Assembly (NCBI RefSeq): GCF_003334815.1
Contig: NZ_QOWO01000064.1
Strand: one strand, 5' to 3'
DNA from: Escherichia coli
GTDB taxonomy: Bacteria > Pseudomonadota > Gammaproteobacteria > Enterobacterales > Enterobacteriaceae
Length of the DNA: 8,823 nt
Shown: positions 1 through 8,823 of the stretch, one piece after another
Layout: the number at the start of each line of letters is the position of its first letter
Numbering within the stretch: the first letter of the stretch is position 1
Program-made: the position numbers and the translations under genes
The notes under the pieces: model-generated
Seen by the model: the letters and a program-made list of their open reading frames with translations, nothing else
What the model was told of the DNA's origin: nothing
Databases searched by the model: none

Positions 1-46
1 AACGGTGAACAATATCACCCTGGGTAAGTATCCGGAGGCGAAATGA
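1..46 (+). CDS. 3' end of a CbtA/YeeV-family toxin gene (partial; 5' portion lies outside the window)
   Basis: The frame starting at nt 2 translates TVNNITLGKYPEAK followed by TGA at 44-46. This C-terminal tail matches what I recall for CbtA/YeeV/YkfI/YpjF-type toxins of E. coli CP4-type cryptic prophages. The stop overlaps the next start codon (ATGA at 43-46). Recognition is from memory of a 14-residue tail only. Confidence 0.5.
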   Translation, partial: TVNNITLGKYPEAK

Positions 47-534
47 TGAAACTGGCCCTGACACTGGAAGCCGACAGTGTTAACGTACAGGCACTGAATA
101 TGGGGCGAATTGTCGTTGACATTGATGGTGTTAATCTCGCTGAACTGATTAACATGGTCTGCGATAACGGCTACTCCCTTCGTGTTGTTGATGAATCTGA
201 CCGGACCTCAGCAGACTGCACGCCACCATTTGTTGCCCTTACCGGCATACGCTGCAGTACCGCACATATCACGGAAACGGACAACGCCTGGCTGTACTCG
301 CTGTCACACCAGACCAGTGACTTCGGTGAATCAGAATGGATTCATTTTACCGGTACCGGTTATCTGTTACGTACCGATGCGTGGTCATACCCGGTTCTGC
401 GGCTTAAGCGCCTGGGGCTGTCAAAAACGTTCCGTCGTCTGGTCGTCACACTCATCCGGCGTTATGGTGTCAGTCTCATTCATCTGGATGCCAGTGCCGG
501 ATATCTGCCGGGTTTACCCACTTTCGACTGGTAA
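43..534 (+). CDS. Hypothetical protein of the kind encoded immediately downstream of cbtA-family toxin genes (YeeW-like); family assignment uncertain
   Basis: 163-aa ORF in the six-frame track. Its ATG at 43 overlaps the toxin stop by 4 nt, which is typical of coupled prophage modules. The product looks like a normal mixed-composition protein and resembles proteins I recall downstream of cbtA paralogs. GC about 50-58% by hand count on two lines. Confidence 0.6.
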   Translation: MMKLALTLEADSVNVQALNMGRIVVDIDGVNLAELINMVCDNGYSLRVVDESDRTSADCTPPFVALTGIRCSTAHITETDNAWLYSLSHQTSDFGESEWIHFTGTGYLLRTDAWSYPVLRLKRLGLSKTFRRLVVTLIRRYGVSLIHLDASAGYLPGLPTFDW

Positions 535-550
535 TCCGGAAATTCACAAC

Positions 551-727
551 ATGAAATCATTAACCACGGAAACAGCGCTGGATATTCTGATTACGTGGCT
601 GCAGGACAATATCGACTGCGAATCGGGAATTATCTTCGACAACGATGAGGATAAAACAGGTTCGGCAGCACTGTTGCGCTGTATCGAACAGGCCAGGGAG
701 GGTATCCGTACCCTGCGCCAACAGTAA
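551..727 (+). CDS. Small DUF957-like protein (58 aa)
   Basis: ATG at 551, 16 nt after the preceding stop, translates MKSLTTETALDILITWLQDNIDCESGIIFDNDEDKTGSAALLRCIEQAREGIRTLRQQ and ends at TAA 725-727. It resembles the small DUF957 proteins I recall in CP4-type islands. The track ORF 182..727 is the same frame extended upstream into the 43..534 gene, and I treat that 5' part as spurious. No clear Shine-Dalgarno sequence. Confidence 0.55.
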   Translation: MKSLTTETALDILITWLQDNIDCESGIIFDNDEDKTGSAALLRCIEQAREGIRTLRQQ

Positions 728-778
728 CTTTTGCACCAGAACCAGTGAAGATCACTCACCCGATTTCACTTCCCTGAC

Positions 779-809
779 GTCAGCCTGAACACGGCTGGCG
801 TTTTCATTT
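779..809 (+). terminator. Candidate rho-independent terminator after the DUF957-like gene
   Basis: Stem 779-785 (GTCAGCC) pairs with 793-799 (GGCTGGC), giving 7 bp with one G-U pair, around a 7-nt loop. It is followed by the T-rich tail GTTTTCATTT at 800-809. Confidence 0.45.
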
Positions 810-826
810 ATAAACAGAAAGGAAAA

Positions 827-985
827 ATGATGATGTCAGATACCACACTCTCCCGCCCGGAGGTGGTCAGCGGGCATACGGACGTTATCTATTCCACCTC
901 AGTCTGCCACATTCTGGCTGTACGAAAGAGTACACTGTTGCCAATCGACACAATTATCCGGCATCAAGTAAGCGATATCAGTTAA
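827..985 (+). CDS. Candidate small ORF (52 aa), function unknown
   Basis: ATG at 827 is preceded by AAAGGA at 818-823, a reasonable Shine-Dalgarno spacing. It translates MMMSDTTLSRPEVVSGHTDVIYSTSVCHILAVRKSTLLPIDTIIRHQVSDIS and stops at TAA 983-985. It is absent from the supplied ORF track, presumably for being below the length cut-off, and I do not recognise the family. Confidence 0.25.
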   Translation: MMMSDTTLSRPEVVSGHTDVIYSTSVCHILAVRKSTLLPIDTIIRHQVSDIS

Positions 986-1151
986 CCGATATAGATGGGG
1001 AAGATGCTTTTATCCGGATTGGTTCTATCGCGATGGTGCGAGTACCACTTGATGCAATGGAGCCTGTCGAGGAAGATGACGAGTAACAGAGCTCGGTATC
1101 TCAATCAGGACCTGATTGTCCTGGTTCGATGCCGAAAACCAGTGATTTTTC

Positions 1152-1220: not shown

Positions 1221-1263
1221 CGCATGTTTGAGTCCGGTCTTCGCACCACATCGTATGCAAATC

Positions 1264-1288
1264 GAGTCGCTCAAGGGCGGCTTTTTTT
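1264..1288 (+). terminator. Candidate rho-independent terminator
   Basis: Stem GTCGC (1266-1270) pairs with GCGGC (1277-1281) around the loop TCAAGG, and is followed immediately by a run of seven T at 1282-1288. The stem is short at 5 bp, extendable by A-U and G-U pairs into the T-run. Confidence 0.4.
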
Positions 1289-1636
1289 GTACCTGTGTTT
1301 TCACTACTTTGTTTGCATGTAACGCTGATAATCTAAGAACTTCGGAAGCCCCATTTCCATCAATGATGTTCATTCATCATCCTGAAAATTAAGTAGATAT
1401 AAAACTTCATTGCCTTGGTCTAATGGCACAGAAATAGATTGCATTTGGCGAGTGGCATTCTTAGTGCGTCGTTGTTTAGTCATGAAACGATGCGTAAAAT
1501 TGCTGATTTTATGTGTCAAAGTCCCGCAACCGGAGATGGCCTTACTTCAATGATCAACCACTATTGACGTATCCTTTTAATATCTTGATTCAATTCAGCA
1601 GGTTATCGTCCAAAGTACAGCGAAGAGAGAGAAAAG

Positions 1637-4528
1637 ATGATTGGTACAACACCTTATCATGCGAAATATTTTGCGCATGAACTTTCCATTCTTCATTCAA
1701 ACAATGGGGTGGACCGTCTGTCTCAATCGCTGTTTGATGCAAGCGTAGATCTAAACCCTCATCAAATTGAGGCGGCTCTTTTTGCTATCGAAAATCCGCT
1801 AAGCAAAGGTGTTGTGCTTGCCGATGAAGTTGGTTTGGGTAAAACCATTGAAGCTGGACTAGTGCTTTGCCAGTTGTGGGCTGAAAGAAAACGTAAACTG
1901 TTGATCATTTGTCCTGCTTCACTGCGTCGCCAATGGGCGAGCGAGTTACAGGAAAAGTTCAATCTACCTTCTCAGGTGTTGGACGCGAAAATGTATAGCC
2001 AGCTTCAAAAAGAAGGGATCCATAATCCCTTAAATAATAAATCGATCACTATCATGTCATACCACTATGCTGCTCGGTTAGAAGAGAAATTGGTGGCTGA
2101 AATGTGGGATCTGGTTGTTATCGACGAAGCCCATAAACTGCGTAATGCTCATCGAGAAAGCAACAAAATGGGGCAAGCGTTAAAGCGTGCGCTTGATGGG
2201 CGGAAGAAATTACTACTGACCGCAACGCCTTTACAGAACTCGTTGATGGAACTGTATGGCATGTCGACGCTTATAGATGAACATACCTTCGGCGAAGTTA
2301 AAGCGTTCAGAAAGCAATATATGCAGGCAGATAGCGATATTGCGGAGTTGAAGGGGCGATTGTCGCGTTTTATCAAACGAACTCTACGCAAGAATGTGCT
2401 GGAGTATATCAAGTATACAGAACGTAAAGCGATCACTATTCCTTTCTATCCGAGCGAACAGGAGCAGGATCTTTATGAACGCGTACAAAAATTGCTTGAA
2501 CGTGAGGATAGCTATGCCTTACCAAAACGACACCGGCATCTGACGGGGCTTATACTCAGAAAACTACTTTCCTCAAGTACGAAAGCCGTATTGAATAACT
2601 TGCAGATCCTTAAGACTCGTTTAGAAAGGTTAAAGCTGGAAGGTATCGTTGAAGATGATATGGACATCATCCAACAGATCATAATGGATGATGATCTTGA
2701 AGATGACATCGTTGAAGATGCCGAATCAGTAGCGCCAGATACAGAGTGCAAATCTGTGGATTCAGATGCGCTTCAGGCAGAAATCAATGAGCTGGAATCA
2801 CTCATTGTTAAAGCAGAACAGATTGGCACTGATACCAAATCAAAAGAGTTGCTTTCTGGCCTGGAGCAAGGTTTTGCACAGCTTGCCGAAATGGGGGCTG
2901 CAAAAAAAGTCATCATCTTCACGGAGTCGATGCGAACTCAACAGTACCTTGCACATTTTCTGGAAAACAATGGCTACCAGGGAAAAGTAGTAACCTTTAG
3001 TGGCACAAACAATACACCGCAGGCAAACAAGATCTACCAGCAATGGCGCGAGGAATATCAGGGATCTTCTCGTATTACCGGGTCGGCGCAAATTGATAAA
3101 CGCTCGGCTTTGATCGACCACTTCAAAGATCATGCTGAAATCATGATAGCTACAGAAGCTGCAGCTGAAGGGGTGAACCTGCAATTTTGTTCGCTACTGA
3201 TCAATTACGATTTACCCTGGAACCCACAACGCATTGAGCAGCGTATTGGACGTTGTCACCGATACGGGCAAAAATTTGATGTGGTTGTTATTAACTTCCT
3301 CAATCAGCGAAACCAGGCCGATCAACGCGTTCTTGAACTCTTAACTGAAAAGTTCAGCCTGTTTGATGGCGTGTTTGGCGCATCGGATAGTGTGCTTGGC
3401 AGCATAGAAAATGGTGTGGATTTTGAAAAAAGGATCCAGTCAATTTATGAGTCATGCCGTACCCCCGAGGAGATAGAGCTGGCTTTTGAAAGGTTGCAGA
3501 AAGAGCTGGAAGATGAAATCAATCTCAAGATGCAGAAGACGCAAGAACAGTTGCTTGAGCATTTTGATGAAGATATTCACGATATCCTTAAAATAAGGCT
3601 TGATGAAGCTCGGGAGCGCCTGGATAAAGTCGGTCGTTGGTTTTGGGCCGTGACCTGTCAGCAGCTCAAACAATATGCTGATTTTGATCATGAGCATCAT
3701 CGTTTCACTTTACGTGAATCAGTCAATGAACTGCCTGTCGGGCAGTACCAGCTGTTGCGCAAAGATGGCAGGCAAAATAGTGCGTTACAAATGCAGGATC
3801 ACCACAGTTTTGCATATCGGATCAATCATCCACTGGGTGAGTACGTCATTGACGGAGCTAAAGCCCAGGAGACGAAAACAGCTGAAGTCATCTTCGATTA
3901 CAGTAACCACACAACGAAAGTTTCGGTGGCTGAGCAGCTGAAAGGGCAATCAGGATGGTTAACACTAAATTTGCTTACTGTTGATGCGTTTAACAGGCAG
4001 CAATTTTTAGTCTTTACCGCGAAAACTGACAACGGACGTGTGGTAGATGGTGAAGCTTGTAAACGTCTGTTCAACTTGTCTGCAATAACCAACGAAAAGC
4101 TGGATAATTCGGCAAGTTTAGATGCATTACCTGATGACTTGATCTTACTCAAGAACAGGCAAATTGACGCCAGGCTTGCAGAAGTTTTGGAGCAGAACAA
4201 TGTCCTTTTTGAAGCGGAAAGAGATAAGCTGGAAAAATGGGCTGAAGACATGATCTTTGCGGCGGAAGAAGCATTACGCGATACCAAAATGCAAATCAAG
4301 TCGTTGAAGCGAGAAGCCAGGCTGGCGCAATCGATCGAAGAACAAAAGCAAAACCAGGAAAAGCTTAAGCTCCTGGAACGGCAGCAGAAGCGCCAACGTA
4401 TGGAAATTTTTGACATTGAAGATGAGATCGCCGACAAGCGGGATGAACTCATCAGTGCCCTTGAAGAGCGGATGAAGCAAAAGACGGATATCACCGAGCT
4501 GTTTACCATCCGCTGGAAAGTTATTTAA
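1637..4528 (+). CDS. SNF2-family (DEAH-type superfamily 2) helicase/ATPase, 963 aa; candidate DrmD-like component
   Basis: Motifs are visible in the translation: Walker A GLGKT (nt 1832-1846), motif II DEAH (2123-2134), the SNF2-type motif III TATPLQN, and in the C-terminal lobe motif V IATEAAAEGVNLQ and motif VI QRIGRCHRYGQ (3239-3271). A purine-rich Shine-Dalgarno-like stretch (AGAGAGAGAAAAG) precedes the ATG. GC about 43-47% by hand count. Confidence 0.9.
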   Translation: MIGTTPYHAKYFAHELSILHSNNGVDRLSQSLFDASVDLNPHQIEAALFAIENPLSKGVVLADEVGLGKTIEAGLVLCQLWAERKRKLLIICPASLRRQWASELQEKFNLPSQVLDAKMYSQLQKEGIHNPLNNKSITIMSYHYAARLEEKLVAEMWDLVVIDEAHKLRNAHRESNKMGQALKRALDGRKKLLLTATPLQNSLMELYGMSTLIDEHTFGEVKAFRKQYMQADSDIAELKGRLSRFIKRTLRKNVLEYIKYTERKAITIPFYPSEQEQDLYERVQKLLEREDSYALPKRHRHLTGLILRKLLSSSTKAVLNNLQILKTRLERLKLEGIVEDDMDIIQQIIMDDDLEDDIVEDAESVAPDTECKSVDSDALQAEINELESLIVKAEQIGTDTKSKELLSGLEQGFAQLAEMGAAKKVIIFTESMRTQQYLAHFLENNGYQGKVVTFSGTNNTPQANKIYQQWREEYQGSSRITGSAQIDKRSALIDHFKDHAEIMIATEAAAEGVNLQFCSLLINYDLPWNPQRIEQRIGRCHRYGQKFDVVVINFLNQRNQADQRVLELLTEKFSLFDGVFGASDSVLGSIENGVDFEKRIQSIYESCRTPEEIELAFERLQKELEDEINLKMQKTQEQLLEHFDEDIHDILKIRLDEARERLDKVGRWFWAVTCQQLKQYADFDHEHHRFTLRESVNELPVGQYQLLRKDGRQNSALQMQDHHSFAYRINHPLGEYVIDGAKAQETKTAEVIFDYSNHTTKVSVAEQLKGQSGWLTLNLLTVDAFNRQQFLVFTAKTDNGRVVDGEACKRLFNLSAITNEKLDNSASLDALPDDLILLKNRQIDARLAEVLEQNNVLFEAERDKLEKWAEDMIFAAEEALRDTKMQIKSLKREARLAQSIEEQKQNQEKLKLLERQQKRQRMEIFDIEDEIADKRDELISALEERMKQKTDITELFTIRWKVI

Positions 4529-4548
4529 TTGATTTGAAAGAGAAAATA

Positions 4549-7500
4549 ATGAGTAAGTACAACGAATTAGTTAAGAAGCTAAAAGAAATTTTTCAGATTG
4601 ATCGACCAGAACTGGATTTCGGTATTTATCGTATTTTAAATGCGCGTGCTGATGAAATTAACGACTATCTGGATAATAAGCTGAAGGCCAAAATCCAGTC
4701 TGCGCTGGCGGATGCAGGAAATGCCAATAAATCAGAATTAGAACATCAGTTGCAACTGACAATAAAAGCGGCAACTGATGCGGGTGTAGACCCTGCTGAT
4801 AGCCCAAAAGTACAGGAGCTTAAAAAGCAACTGGCGGCTATGGCATCCGGAGCAAATGAGCATGAAAATGCAGTATTTTCCCATCTGCTCACTTTCTTTT
4901 CGCGTTATTATGACAACGGCGATTTTATCAGCAAACGCCGTTATAAAGGTAATACCTACGCCATCCCCTATTCTGGCGAAGAAGTGATGTTGCACTGGGC
5001 AAATAAGGACCAGTACTACATTAAAAGCGGTGAAAACTTCGCTAATTATTCGTTCAAATTAGAAGACGGTCGTAAAGTTAGCTTTAAATTGCTCGCAGCG
5101 GACACAGCAAAAGATAACCGTAAAGATAATGAATTAGATCGCTGCTTTGTACTTATTGAGCCACATGTTCGTACCAAAATTGATGAAGAAGGCGATGAGT
5201 ACGAACAAGAATATAAGCCAGTAGAAGTGGTGAAAAACTCATCTGTGGTGGACGGTAAACTCGTTGAAACAGAAGAGTTAGTTATTCACTTCGAATATAA
5301 GGCAATGAAAAAGGGCACTAAGCAGGATGCTTTAGTACAGTCCGCCATTTCAACAATTCTGGCAGATAAAACAGTTCAACAGCATTGGGTTGATCTTGCT
5401 AAACGTGCGCCAACAGAAAAGAATCCGTCACGTACAGAGTTGGAGCGTCACCTTACAACTTATACCCAGCGTAATACAGCAGACTACTTTATCCATAAAG
5501 ATCTCGGTGGTTTTTTAACGAACGAACTGGATTTTTATATTAAAAATGAAGTAATGAATCTCGATAATGTGCAAAATGCAGAAGTGTTTGCCAATGTTGA
5601 GAAACAATTGCGCATGATTCAATGTTTGCGTGCTGTTGCGCTGGAACTCATTACATTTTTGGCACAAATTGAGAATTTCCAGAAAAAACTTTGGACTAAG
5701 AAGAAGTTTGTTGTTGGGCATGAGTATCTTGTGTCACTTTCAAATCTATCAGATTCGCTTTACGATAAAATTCGAACTAATAAAGGGCAACATGATGAAT
5801 GGGTTGAGCTTTATGCTGTAAATAAAATTCCTGGATATTCATTTCCATTCACAAAAGATTTCTTGTATAAAAATAATGGTATGATATTGGATACAAAATA
5901 TTTTGATCCGTCATTTAAGGAGGTTTTTTTAACAGAGTTAACTAATGTTGACGATAATTTAGATGGTCTCTTAATTAATTCAGATAATTATCAGGCCATT
6001 AATTTTTTGGAGGGGCGGTATAAGGACTCAATAGACTGTCTTTATATTGATCCTCCGTATAATACTGCGGCTTCAGAAATTTTATATAAAAATGAATATA
6101 AGCACAGCAGCTGGAATTCATTAATGTATGAAAGGATATCTAAAAGCTATAATTTACTGAAAATTTCTGCAATTAATTTTACCGCGATAGATCATGCGGA
6201 ATTATATAATCTTGGTAAGATCAAGGATGAAATCTATGGAGAACAAAACAGGATAGCAGTTGTTACTGTTCAGCATAATCCTAAAGGGCGTAACCAGGCA
6301 AAGTTCTTTTCTGAAAATACTGAGTATATGTTAGTATATGCTAAAGATTTTAATGCTGCTAACTTTAACTCTGTAGCTATCGATGAGGATGTGCTTTTAA
6401 CATTCACAGAACAAGATAATATAGGCCGTTATCGTTGGGAAAACTTTATTCGTGCAAGAACAAGTTGGTCCAGAGCAAATAGACCAAATAACTGGTATCC
6501 TTTATACGTCTCTTCCGACTTAAAATCAATTTCTGTTGATTATGTAGATGGGTATATCGAAGTATATCCTACAACTAAACAGGGGGATTTTTCGTGGAAA
6601 AATATTAAAGAATCATTTGTTGAATTAAATAAAGATAATTATTTTAAAGCTGTAAATGAAAATGGAGAAATAAAAATCTATCATAAATATAGGGAGCAGC
6701 AAGTCTTTAAAAATCTTTGGATTGATAAGAAATATCAGTCTGAGTTTAATGGTACAAATTTACTGAAAAACATACTTGGACAATCACTATTTGATTATCC
6801 GAAATCATTATATGCAGTACAAGATGCAATCAAAATGTCGACACCACACAATGGTATTGTATTGGACTATTTTGCAGGTTCAGGGACAACTTCTCATGCA
6901 GTAATAAACCTTAATAATTCAGATAATCTCTGTATGAAATTTATCAATGTTGAAATGGGTACTCATTTCAATACAGTAGTTATTCCAAGATTGAAGAAAA
7001 TTGGATATTCAAACTTATGGAAACAATGTAAACCAATCGGTAAACCTCAAAAAATGACTATCAAGTATTTGAAACTTGAAAGTTATGAGGATGCTCTTAA
7101 TAATATACAATTACGAAGTTATTCATTGCATCAGGATATTTTCGACATTTTGGTGGAAGATGTAAAATCAGAGTTTGCTCTTAAATATATTTTTGAAAAT
7201 GAATTATTTTATTCACTATTAAATACTGATAATTTCAAAAAACCATTTAACTACGAAATGGATATTGCGACGGATTCCGCCGGTGCCACTGAGCGTAAAA
7301 ACATCGATTTAGTTGAAACTTTCAATTATCTCATTGGCTTACATGTGAAATCCATCGAATCTGATATCGCACGTGGCTATGTGCGTATTGAAGGAACGCT
7401 GCCAACAGGCGAGCGTACCCTTATTCTGTGGCGCGATTGCGACAAGATCGGTTATGAAGAATTGAATAAATATGCCAACCGATTTGATTTGTATGCAAAA

Positions 7501-7653
7501 GAAAACACGTTCGACGTTATCTACATCAATGGCGATCATAACTTACCTACCGCCTTTACCGTTGATGAAGAAGACGGCGAGATTGTTCGTAGCCTGAAAA
7601 TTCGCCAGATCGAACCTGAATTCTTGAACCTGATGTTTGCGGAGGAGGTTTAA
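4549..7653 (+). CDS. Beta-class DNA methyltransferase (N6-adenine/N4-cytosine type, Type III Mod-like catalytic core) with a ~420-aa N-terminal extension, 1034 aa; candidate DrmMI-like component
   Basis: Motif IV DPPY (CLYIDPPYN, nt 6049-6060) precedes motif I FxGxG (LDYFAGSGTT, nt 6865-6891) by about 270 residues, which is the beta-class order with room for a target-recognition domain between them. I place the start at ATG 4549, preceded by AAAGAG; the track starts at an in-frame TTG at 4534, which remains a possible alternative. Only 20 nt separate it from the upstream stop. Confidence 0.88.
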   Translation: MSKYNELVKKLKEIFQIDRPELDFGIYRILNARADEINDYLDNKLKAKIQSALADAGNANKSELEHQLQLTIKAATDAGVDPADSPKVQELKKQLAAMASGANEHENAVFSHLLTFFSRYYDNGDFISKRRYKGNTYAIPYSGEEVMLHWANKDQYYIKSGENFANYSFKLEDGRKVSFKLLAADTAKDNRKDNELDRCFVLIEPHVRTKIDEEGDEYEQEYKPVEVVKNSSVVDGKLVETEELVIHFEYKAMKKGTKQDALVQSAISTILADKTVQQHWVDLAKRAPTEKNPSRTELERHLTTYTQRNTADYFIHKDLGGFLTNELDFYIKNEVMNLDNVQNAEVFANVEKQLRMIQCLRAVALELITFLAQIENFQKKLWTKKKFVVGHEYLVSLSNLSDSLYDKIRTNKGQHDEWVELYAVNKIPGYSFPFTKDFLYKNNGMILDTKYFDPSFKEVFLTELTNVDDNLDGLLINSDNYQAINFLEGRYKDSIDCLYIDPPYNTAASEILYKNEYKHSSWNSLMYERISKSYNLLKISAINFTAIDHAELYNLGKIKDEIYGEQNRIAVVTVQHNPKGRNQAKFFSENTEYMLVYAKDFNAANFNSVAIDEDVLLTFTEQDNIGRYRWENFIRARTSWSRANRPNNWYPLYVSSDLKSISVDYVDGYIEVYPTTKQGDFSWKNIKESFVELNKDNYFKAVNENGEIKIYHKYREQQVFKNLWIDKKYQSEFNGTNLLKNILGQSLFDYPKSLYAVQDAIKMSTPHNGIVLDYFAGSGTTSHAVINLNNSDNLCMKFINVEMGTHFNTVVIPRLKKIGYSNLWKQCKPIGKPQKMTIKYLKLESYEDALNNIQLRSYSLHQDIFDILVEDVKSEFALKYIFENELFYSLLNTDNFKKPFNYEMDIATDSAGATERKNIDLVETFNYLIGLHVKSIESDIARGYVRIEGTLPTGERTLILWRDCDKIGYEELNKYANRFDLYAKENTFDVIYINGDHNLPTAFTVDEEDGEIVRSLKIRQIEPEFLNLMFAEEV
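7641..7648 (+). promoter_or_regulatory. Shine-Dalgarno sequence GGAGGAGG for the third gene, embedded in the last codons of the methyltransferase gene
   Basis: GGAGGAGG lies 7 nt upstream of ATG 7656. The methyltransferase stop (7651-7653) and the next start are 2 nt apart, which suggests translational coupling. Confidence 0.6.
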
Positions 7654-7655
7654 GA

Positions 7656-8669
7656 ATGGCTAAAAAACCGACCACCGGTAAAGCAGTTAAAAAAGAGACT
7701 AACAGCAAGCTGAGCTTTCATAAACAACTGGTTTTAAACCGCTTTATGTTCCATTTTTTCAAAGATGGCACATTGCAAGGTTTGAAGAATCGGTTAGGCG
7801 AGGATCGCTTTGAAGGCATCCATGAAGATGGCCAAAGCTTGTTCTTCCATGAGCTGAGTAACTATTTATTCGAGGTCGATCTAATCGATCTCGATGAACT
7901 GCGTCGTTACGATCTCAATATCGTGCAGCACTGGCAGCAGATAACCGAGCACCGTAATCGTAAAGAAGACACTGTGCTGAACATGAAATATTTTCAGTAC
8001 TTGTCGCTTCTGTTTACCGAGATCTACCTGGACTGGTACTTCAATCGTAAACAGCAATTACTCGATGGGCTAAATAACGAGCTGGCAGCATACAATGCTG
8101 AAAATGATAAAACAGCAAAAGACCGGGCTAATCAGTTCAAATCATATGTTCTGGATGATTTGAATAAATTGGCATACTGGAACGCTACTGGTTCTGGTAA
8201 GACACTGCTATTACATGTCAATATTTTGCAATATTTACATTATTTCCAGAACGGTAATAGCCATCATTATCCGGATAAAATCATCCTGCTTACGCCGGAT
8301 GAACGCCTGTCGAAGCAACATTTAGATGAACTGGAAAACTCAGGGTTTACCCAATACCAGTTGTTCGATAAGAGTAAATCAGCGCCCTTCAAAGGCACGA
8401 TTGAAGTCATTGATATCAATAAACTTGATGATAAAATGGGCGACAAAACTGTTGCCGTTGAGGCATTTGAAGGCAACAATCTGGTCCTGATTGATGAAGG
8501 GCATAAAGGCACAGGAAGTGCTGCTGGTGCCTGGATGCGCCGTCGTGACAAGTTAACTCGTGACGGATTTGCGTTTGAATATTCAGCAACTTTTGGCCAG
8601 GCAGTAGCCGGTGGCAATAATGTGGAGGCAGTTGAAACAGAAATTCAGAAGAAAAAAGCAAAGCTCTGA
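7656..8669 (+). CDS. Helicase-like ATPase containing only the first RecA-like lobe (Type III Res-like / DrmA-like N-terminal region), 337 aa; probably truncated or disrupted
   Basis: Walker A ATGSGKT (nt 8184-8204; GSGKT at 8190-8204), motif II LIDEGH (DEGH at 8493-8504) and a motif III-like SAT (8583-8591) are present. The ORF stops at 8667-8669 with no motifs IV-VI and no arginine-finger region. The following 8670-8732 has stops in all three forward frames. Confidence 0.75.
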   Translation: MAKKPTTGKAVKKETNSKLSFHKQLVLNRFMFHFFKDGTLQGLKNRLGEDRFEGIHEDGQSLFFHELSNYLFEVDLIDLDELRRYDLNIVQHWQQITEHRNRKEDTVLNMKYFQYLSLLFTEIYLDWYFNRKQQLLDGLNNELAAYNAENDKTAKDRANQFKSYVLDDLNKLAYWNATGSGKTLLLHVNILQYLHYFQNGNSHHYPDKIILLTPDERLSKQHLDELENSGFTQYQLFDKSKSAPFKGTIEVIDINKLDDKMGDKTVAVEAFEGNNLVLIDEGHKGTGSAAGAWMRRRDKLTRDGFAFEYSATFGQAVAGGNNVEAVETEIQKKKAKL

Positions 8670-8823
8670 GAGATCCCCTCATAATTTCCCCAAAGCGTAA
8701 CCATGTGTGAATAAATTTTGAGCTAGTAGGGTTGCAGCCACGAGTAAGTCTTCCCTTGTTATTGTGTAGCCAGAATGCCGCAAAACTTCCATGCCTAAGC
8801 GAACTGTTGAGAGTACGTTTCGA

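Follow-up and report, generated by a model that had tools for sequence, protein, structure and literature searches.

Does the short open reading frame at positions 827–985 represent a small gene in its own right, or is it what is left of a longer one? The window, meaning here the whole 8,823-nt stretch of the Escherichia coli contig NZ_QOWO01000064.1 that was analyzed, carries this frame on the plus strand, directly behind a terminator-like hairpin and a Shine–Dalgarno motif. An earlier note had described these three elements from the letters of the sequence, and ORF finding, direct reading and folding recovered all of them:

776–802, plus strand: terminator-like hairpin (10-bp stem, 7-nt loop, then UUCAUUUAU)
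818–823, plus strand: Shine–Dalgarno motif AAAGGA, the native ribosome-binding site of a DUF4942 gene, 9 nt from ATG-833
827–985, plus strand: open reading frame of 52 codons with an ATG start (ORF finder and direct reading)

The frame opens with three ATGs in succession, at 827, 830 and 833, which lie 3, 6 and 9 nt from AAAGGA, respectively. The Shine–Dalgarno motif therefore fits ATG-830 and ATG-833 better than ATG-827, so that the suitable spacing claimed earlier holds for the second and third ATG but not for the one that opens the frame. ATG-833 is the sole start common to the other alleles (type-B alleles read ATTATG in the alignment) and is also the start chosen by PGAP; the product from this conserved start is 50 aa long. 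The motif AAAGGAA was found unchanged across nine aligned sequences, an intact DUF4942 gene included. ORF finder returned four more frames of at least 52 aa, in various frames, within the 900-nt stretch 728–1636, and thus a length of 52 aa is by itself at chance level; the frame at 827–985 stands above chance because it is homologous to the 5′ end of a real gene. The peptide matched nothing in Pfam even at E ≤ 10 and nothing in NCBIfam at E ≤ 0.01, and it fell into no known toxin, antitoxin or DNA-binding family. A promoter scan of positions 500–1700 revealed no sigma-70-like site on the plus strand, so that no promoter of its own can be proposed for the frame.

The genomic context was delineated from annotated loci and from the comparison with an island-free strain:

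1–45, plus strand: 3′ end of cbtA (PGAP annotation of 100%-identical loci)
43–534, plus strand: DUF5983 gene (same source)
551–727, plus strand: DUF957 gene (same source)
1087–1225, no strand: non-coding island end between the HTH stop codon and attR, which accompanies the HTH tail in other E. coli genomes
1226–1249, plus strand: attR, a degenerate copy of the last 24 nt of tRNA-Leu (leuX) with three differences from the functional gene, marking the island end
1264–1283, plus strand: terminator of the native leuX flank, downstream of the attR repeat

Window 1–727 corresponds to the right arm of a CbtA/CbeA-type “CP4-like” island. Positions 700–1300 are 100% identical to many finished E. coli chromosomes. 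The island-free strain has leuX directly preceding the SNF2 gene, the same gene that starts at window position 1637, and window 1226–1700 is 95.6% identical to that strain from the end of tRNA-Leu to the SNF2 gene. With attR at 1226–1249, the frame lies about 250–400 nt inside the right-hand end of a leuX-inserted island. ARAGORN detected no complete tRNA in the window, and an Rfam scan of positions 1–1700 gave no match at E ≤ 1. The DUF957 protein encoded here has 58 aa and ends in LRQQ, and its counterparts in the other islands examined have 65 aa and end in LRQLQLLHQNR, i.e., the C-terminus is shortened in this arm.

The hairpin at 776–802 folds at −16.2 kcal/mol (z = −4.5 against shuffled sequences) and combines a stable GC-rich stem-loop with a U-tract, as a Rho-independent terminator does, the U-tract being interrupted (UUUUCAUUUAU). 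It is kept upstream of the intact DUF4942 gene in the island of strain JA0266 as well as in all alleles of the short frame, and is the element that ordinarily separates a DUF957 gene from a DUF4942 gene.

Sequence comparison divides the frame and the DNA behind it into two parts of different origin, which meet at a sharp breakpoint:

833–963, plus strand: 5′ remnant of a DUF4942-family gene (first 43 codons and 2 nt, all upstream of the Pfam domain)
963–964, no strand: deletion junction CGGCA/TCAA (the stroke marks the breakpoint), at which the parent sequences share at most 1 nt (A963)
964–1086, plus strand: 3′ remnant of an XRE-type HTH regulator gene (last 40 codons and the stop), in a frame different from that of the ORF

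In E. coli, the right arm of CP4-like islands with CbtA/CbeA usually ends with a DUF4942 gene for a protein of about 280 aa. The left part finds its intact counterpart in the JA0266 island (L003), where a gene for a 280-aa DUF4942 protein (WP_001280460.1; positions 3034–3876, 281 codons counting the stop) follows the same DUF957 gene, hairpin and Shine–Dalgarno motif, and shares with the window its start codon and the neighbors cbtA, DUF5983 and DUF957. Nucleotide homology between the window and this island (blastn) extends from position 1 to position 963 at 88.9% identity and ends there. Residues 3–45 of the ORF align with residues 1–43 of the intact protein; the frame is thus made up of M-M, DUF4942 codons 1–43, seven codons read out of frame (HQVSDIS) and a stop. 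By manual count, the 43 aa of the stump and the N-terminus of the 280-aa protein share 77% identity (BLASTP reports 72% over 50 positions, a spurious tail included). The Pfam domain PF13708 occupies residues 87–276 of the intact protein (190 model positions), and the stump holds none of it. In comparison with WP_001280460.1, the stump keeps 43 of the 280 codons and no Pfam domain, and it ends with seven foreign codons. It sits in the orthologous position of the DUF4942 gene, after DUF957, with the same Shine–Dalgarno motif and ATG and with a similar N-terminal sequence. Position and N-terminus together show descent from a DUF4942 member gene, and not membership of the product in the family. 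The intact DUF4942 protein matched none of the PADLOC families.

The direction of the change can be read from E. coli 2020N21-110 (L005), which carries an N-terminal allele 97% identical to the stump at the nucleotide level that continues beyond the breakpoint with ordinary DUF4942 sequence; it is thus the short form that is derived. The earlier note had named a remnant of a longer gene as the other possible origin of the frame, expecting it to match the interior of such a gene. The remnant reading was borne out by the 5′ DUF4942 homology up to 963 and the HTH tail beyond it, and a longer gene was indeed matched, albeit at its 5′ end and not in its interior. It is because the match is to the 5′ end that the native Shine–Dalgarno motif and start codon are still present. 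As a separate observation, window 833–968 shows about 72% DNA identity, in a few E. coli genomes, to DNA annotated as “EutP/PduV family microcompartment system protein”, which could be another fusion or remnant carrying the 5′ end of a DUF4942 gene.

The right part derives from a different gene. Window 963–1086 matches positions 2993–3116 of the corresponding sequence from strain JX21CE33 (L006; blastn), in which the intact gene of a 262-aa HTH regulator spans 2328–3116. The encoded tail is 85% identical in amino acid sequence to residues 223–262 of WP_032161357.1, with a common stop codon position at 1086. In leuX islands the 262-aa regulator (WP_032161357.1 or WP_001531269.1) is encoded downstream of a CopG–RelE/ParE pair; compared with it, the remnant in the window is without the first 222 codons, the HTH motif included, and without a start codon. 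The NCBIfam HTH matches of the regulator lie within about residues 2–65, and a search of the tail against NCBIfam gave no match.

The breakpoint between the two parts is exact. Where the truncated tail is matched to the intact HTH gene, the match always sets in at one base (query position 1344, which is L006 position 2993). Not one base of the junction varies among the eight scar-bearing sequences that were aligned, although these diverge by as much as 12% on the 5′ side and one allele (L012) is recognizably a mosaic. In the DNA that encodes HQVSDIS, 11 intervening nt agree with the HTH parent at 8–9 of 11 positions, as against 2 of 10 for DUF4942. A BLASTP alignment of HQVSDIS with the native QLTEIS was rejected as homology, since it reflects an ATATCAG heptamer that is present in both sequences but translated in different frames. 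A partial match to a gene that is intact elsewhere, a definable breakpoint and a far side from another gene together identify the frame as a gene remnant. The identical junction further indicates that all scar alleles trace to one deletion event, widely inherited, and that the junction can be taken as a single-origin marker.

The size of the deletion follows from islands that lack it. The order cbtA, DUF4942, CopG, RelE/ParE, HTH regulator is found at this chromosomal locus in two intact lineages that have diverged, and because intact leuX-locus islands have DUF4942–CopG–RelE/ParE–HTH regulator, about 2.1 kb must have been deleted here. In intact-lineage coordinates, the missing segment of about 2.1 kb takes in five-sixths of DUF4942 from its 3′ side, both genes of the CopG/RelE pair, and regulator codons 1–222. 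A close relative of this DUF4942 allele together with the intact HTH module was found in no genome; we therefore infer the exact gene content of the segment in this island's ancestor from more distant islands.

The open reading frame is thus very probably the by-product of one old deletion of about 2 kb that joined the 5′ end of a DUF4942 gene, out of frame, to the tail of an HTH gene. Directly shown are the homologies to both parent genes and the breakpoint between them, a junction that does not vary among alleles, the lack of the DUF4942 domain, and the pseudogene annotation described below. The ancestral right arm would have had the order cbeA–cbtA–DUF5983–DUF957–hairpin–DUF4942 (about 280 aa)–CopG/RelE toxin–antitoxin–XRE-HTH (262 aa)–attR. 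Illegitimate recombination, with a microhomology of at most 1 nt, would then have removed some 2.1 kb and fused DUF4942 codon 43/44 to regulator codon 223 in the wrong frame, leaving the native ribosome-binding site, the start codon, 43 DUF4942 codons, the seven nonsense-frame codons and a stop. Read-through from the cbtA operon may still provide a transcript of the stump, and its translation would yield a 50-aa peptide, presumably without function.

The description of the frame as unannotated applies to the track seen by the earlier note, and not to the public databases. In RefSeq, PGAP marks 833–982 as a pseudogene (“hypothetical protein” or “DUF4942 domain-containing protein”, missing C-terminus) and 973–1086 (958–1086 in other alleles) as a second one (“helix-turn-helix transcriptional regulator”, missing N-terminus), and GenBank holds the peptides as “hypothetical protein”; the exact 52-aa peptide is deposited under this name in public collections on at least 1000 contigs and the 50-aa peptide on 385. 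What might have passed for a new small regulator is thus a false lead that can be removed: it is a deletion scar, already flagged by the NCBI pipeline as two pseudogene fragments. As the stump illustrates, a truncated gene can be mistaken for a small one when its ribosome-binding site and start codon have survived. Nothing on this locus came up in the literature, whether it was searched for DUF4942, the peptide string, or leuX together with cbtA or yeeV.

To describe the spread of the scar, we used a 301-nt stretch spanning the junction, which is found in 1370 of 5426 complete E. coli genomes when a match is defined as at least 80% coverage of the stretch, the junction bases themselves having been read in eight sequences. 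The intact CopG–RelE–HTH module occurs in 87 E. coli genomes. Genomes that match window 800–1100 do so at a median of two places each. The junction CGGCA/TCAA thereby offers a precise tracer for one lineage of leuX-inserted CbtA/CbeA islands; roughly one in four finished E. coli genomes carries it. Strains with the locus include E. coli 042, E24377A, Nissle 1917, ATCC 25922 and NCTC86. Outside E. coli, with one genome per species searched, the junction gave two matches, both on gut MAG contigs of 1.9–2.8 kb. These MAGs are labeled Collinsella sp. (JAIJJM010000633.1) and Lachnospiraceae (CAKRJY010000038.1), and the contigs are 99.9% and 88.6% identical to the window, respectively; they are almost certainly mis-binned E. 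coli DNA and not a sign of spread to other phyla.

The same type of decay is seen in the CP4-44 island of E. coli K-12. The K-12 gene yeeW (b2006) is, like the stump in the window, an N-terminal stump, here of 64 aa from a 163-aa DUF5983 gene (71% identity over 55 aa), and the homology of CP4-44 to this arm (L009, 2679–2848) ends exactly at the DUF4942 start codon. In E. coli 2020N21-110, the DUF4942 gene (L005, 2534–2764) is interrupted by a stop codon following codon 77 and directly adjoins a capsule gene. The breakpoints in CP4-44 and in 2020N21-110 differ from that of the window and represent independent events; yeeW, the end of the CP4-44 homology and the lesion in 2020N21-110 thus show that decay of this arm by truncation is recurrent. 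Another K-12 gene, yoeF, was tested as a counterpart of DUF4942 and rejected as unrelated.

Several other readings of the frame were weighed against the deletion scar. An artifact of sequencing or assembly, i.e., a frameshift error in an intact gene, is virtually negligible as an explanation and can be taken as refuted: we found no evidence in its support, some 2.1 kb is missing and not one base, and the junction-spanning stretch recurs in 1370 independently finished genomes, with an identical junction in the eight sequences read. An independent missed gene, unrelated to any longer one and coding for a small regulator or a toxin–antitoxin accessory factor as the earlier note had proposed, might be suggested by the good Shine–Dalgarno motif, the ATG start and the site after a hairpin in a toxin–antitoxin-rich module. 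Such a gene is nevertheless exceedingly improbable, and the comparisons with the intact DUF4942 gene refute it. The motif and the hairpin belong to the longer DUF4942 gene, the DNA homology runs upstream through the whole arm, and the peptide, which matches no Pfam or NCBIfam family, consists of the N-terminus of the 280-aa protein and the seven out-of-frame codons. Equally hard to credit is a programmed frameshift (recoding) that would join the stump and the HTH tail into a fusion protein of about 85 aa. The two frames do overlap, as do the PGAP pseudogene pieces (833–982 and 973–1086), but the overlap is merely those seven codons, and no obvious slippery run, such as a homopolymer, was seen on reading positions 955–985 by eye. 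The product would moreover unite the 43 N-terminal residues of DUF4942 with the 40 C-terminal residues of an unrelated regulator, and would contain no DUF4942 domain and no HTH motif.

A function of the stump itself has somewhat more in its favor. It could be a 50-aa micro-protein retained for some activity, such as mimicry of, or interference with, the N-terminus of intact DUF4942 paralogues that other CP4-like islands encode in the same cell. The frame is open in all eight alleles, the sole indel being an in-frame 6-nt deletion in one of them, and the Shine–Dalgarno motif and ATG-833 are kept; the scar form is commoner than the intact one (1370 against 87 genomes); and the median of two places per genome matching 800–1100 suggests that a putative paralogue might be at hand as a partner. 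Against this stand the loss of every conserved domain, the accidental frame of the last seven residues and the lack of a promoter-like site on the plus strand in 500–1700, while the abundance of the scar can be explained by hitch-hiking with a successful island. Between the window and L004, which represent the two main alleles, 11 of the 43 stump residues differ, and dN/dS is near 1, unlike in the neighboring genes: it ranges from 0.47 to 2.5 between alleles for the 43 stump codons and from 0.13 to 0.46 for DUF5983 and DUF957 in the same pairs, although the stump values are weak evidence, being based on 43 codons with recombination with intact paralogues, and are similar to those against the intact JA0266 allele (0.47–0.87). 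The open frame and the kept translation signals are compatible with a retained small protein and are equally expected of a young or neutral stump, the 5′ part of which would have been repeatedly overwritten by recombination with intact paralogous islands. We therefore regard a functional micro-protein of the kind described as very unlikely and give any real function of the stump peptide only a slim chance. The more specific proposal of a working 50-aa N-terminal decoy that modulates intact DUF4942 paralogues or the neighboring CbtA/CbeA module is most doubtful; if the micro-protein reading were true, it would help to account for the roughly 15-fold excess of the scarred over the intact arm in E. 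coli. Under the preferred reading, a deletion scar, the stump is a neutral remnant, perhaps translated when the hairpin is read through.

Just outside attR, window 1637–8665 holds three genes, which encode a DrmD-like SNF2 helicase, a Type III-like methyltransferase (1039 aa) and a Type III-like Res helicase. The SNF2 helicase (963 aa) scores 667 bits against the NCBIfam DISARM model DrmD_b, below its cut-off of 950, and matches the PADLOC DrmD family at 4e-199. No genes named DrmA, DrmB or DrmC follow the module in E. coli 042, where all three genes are intact. The module looks like a Type III restriction–modification system with a DISARM-type SNF2 partner. The last 158 nt of the window (8666–8823) are the end of an IS10-type element (IS4-like ISVsa5 family according to PGAP), inserted in the Type III restriction (res) gene. 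The orthologue in E. coli 042 is 1126 aa long; here the res frame (7656–8669) breaks off after 337 aa, and the DNA is homologous to 042 only up to 8665. In this strain the restriction half of the system has thus probably been inactivated, whereas the ORF of the methylase gene is intact. Within the methyltransferase gene, an internal segment of 1.5 kb (5715–7212) has no megablast match to the 042 orthologue and is flanked by sequence 97–99% identical to it; this segment could be a swapped target-recognition domain conferring a different methylation specificity.
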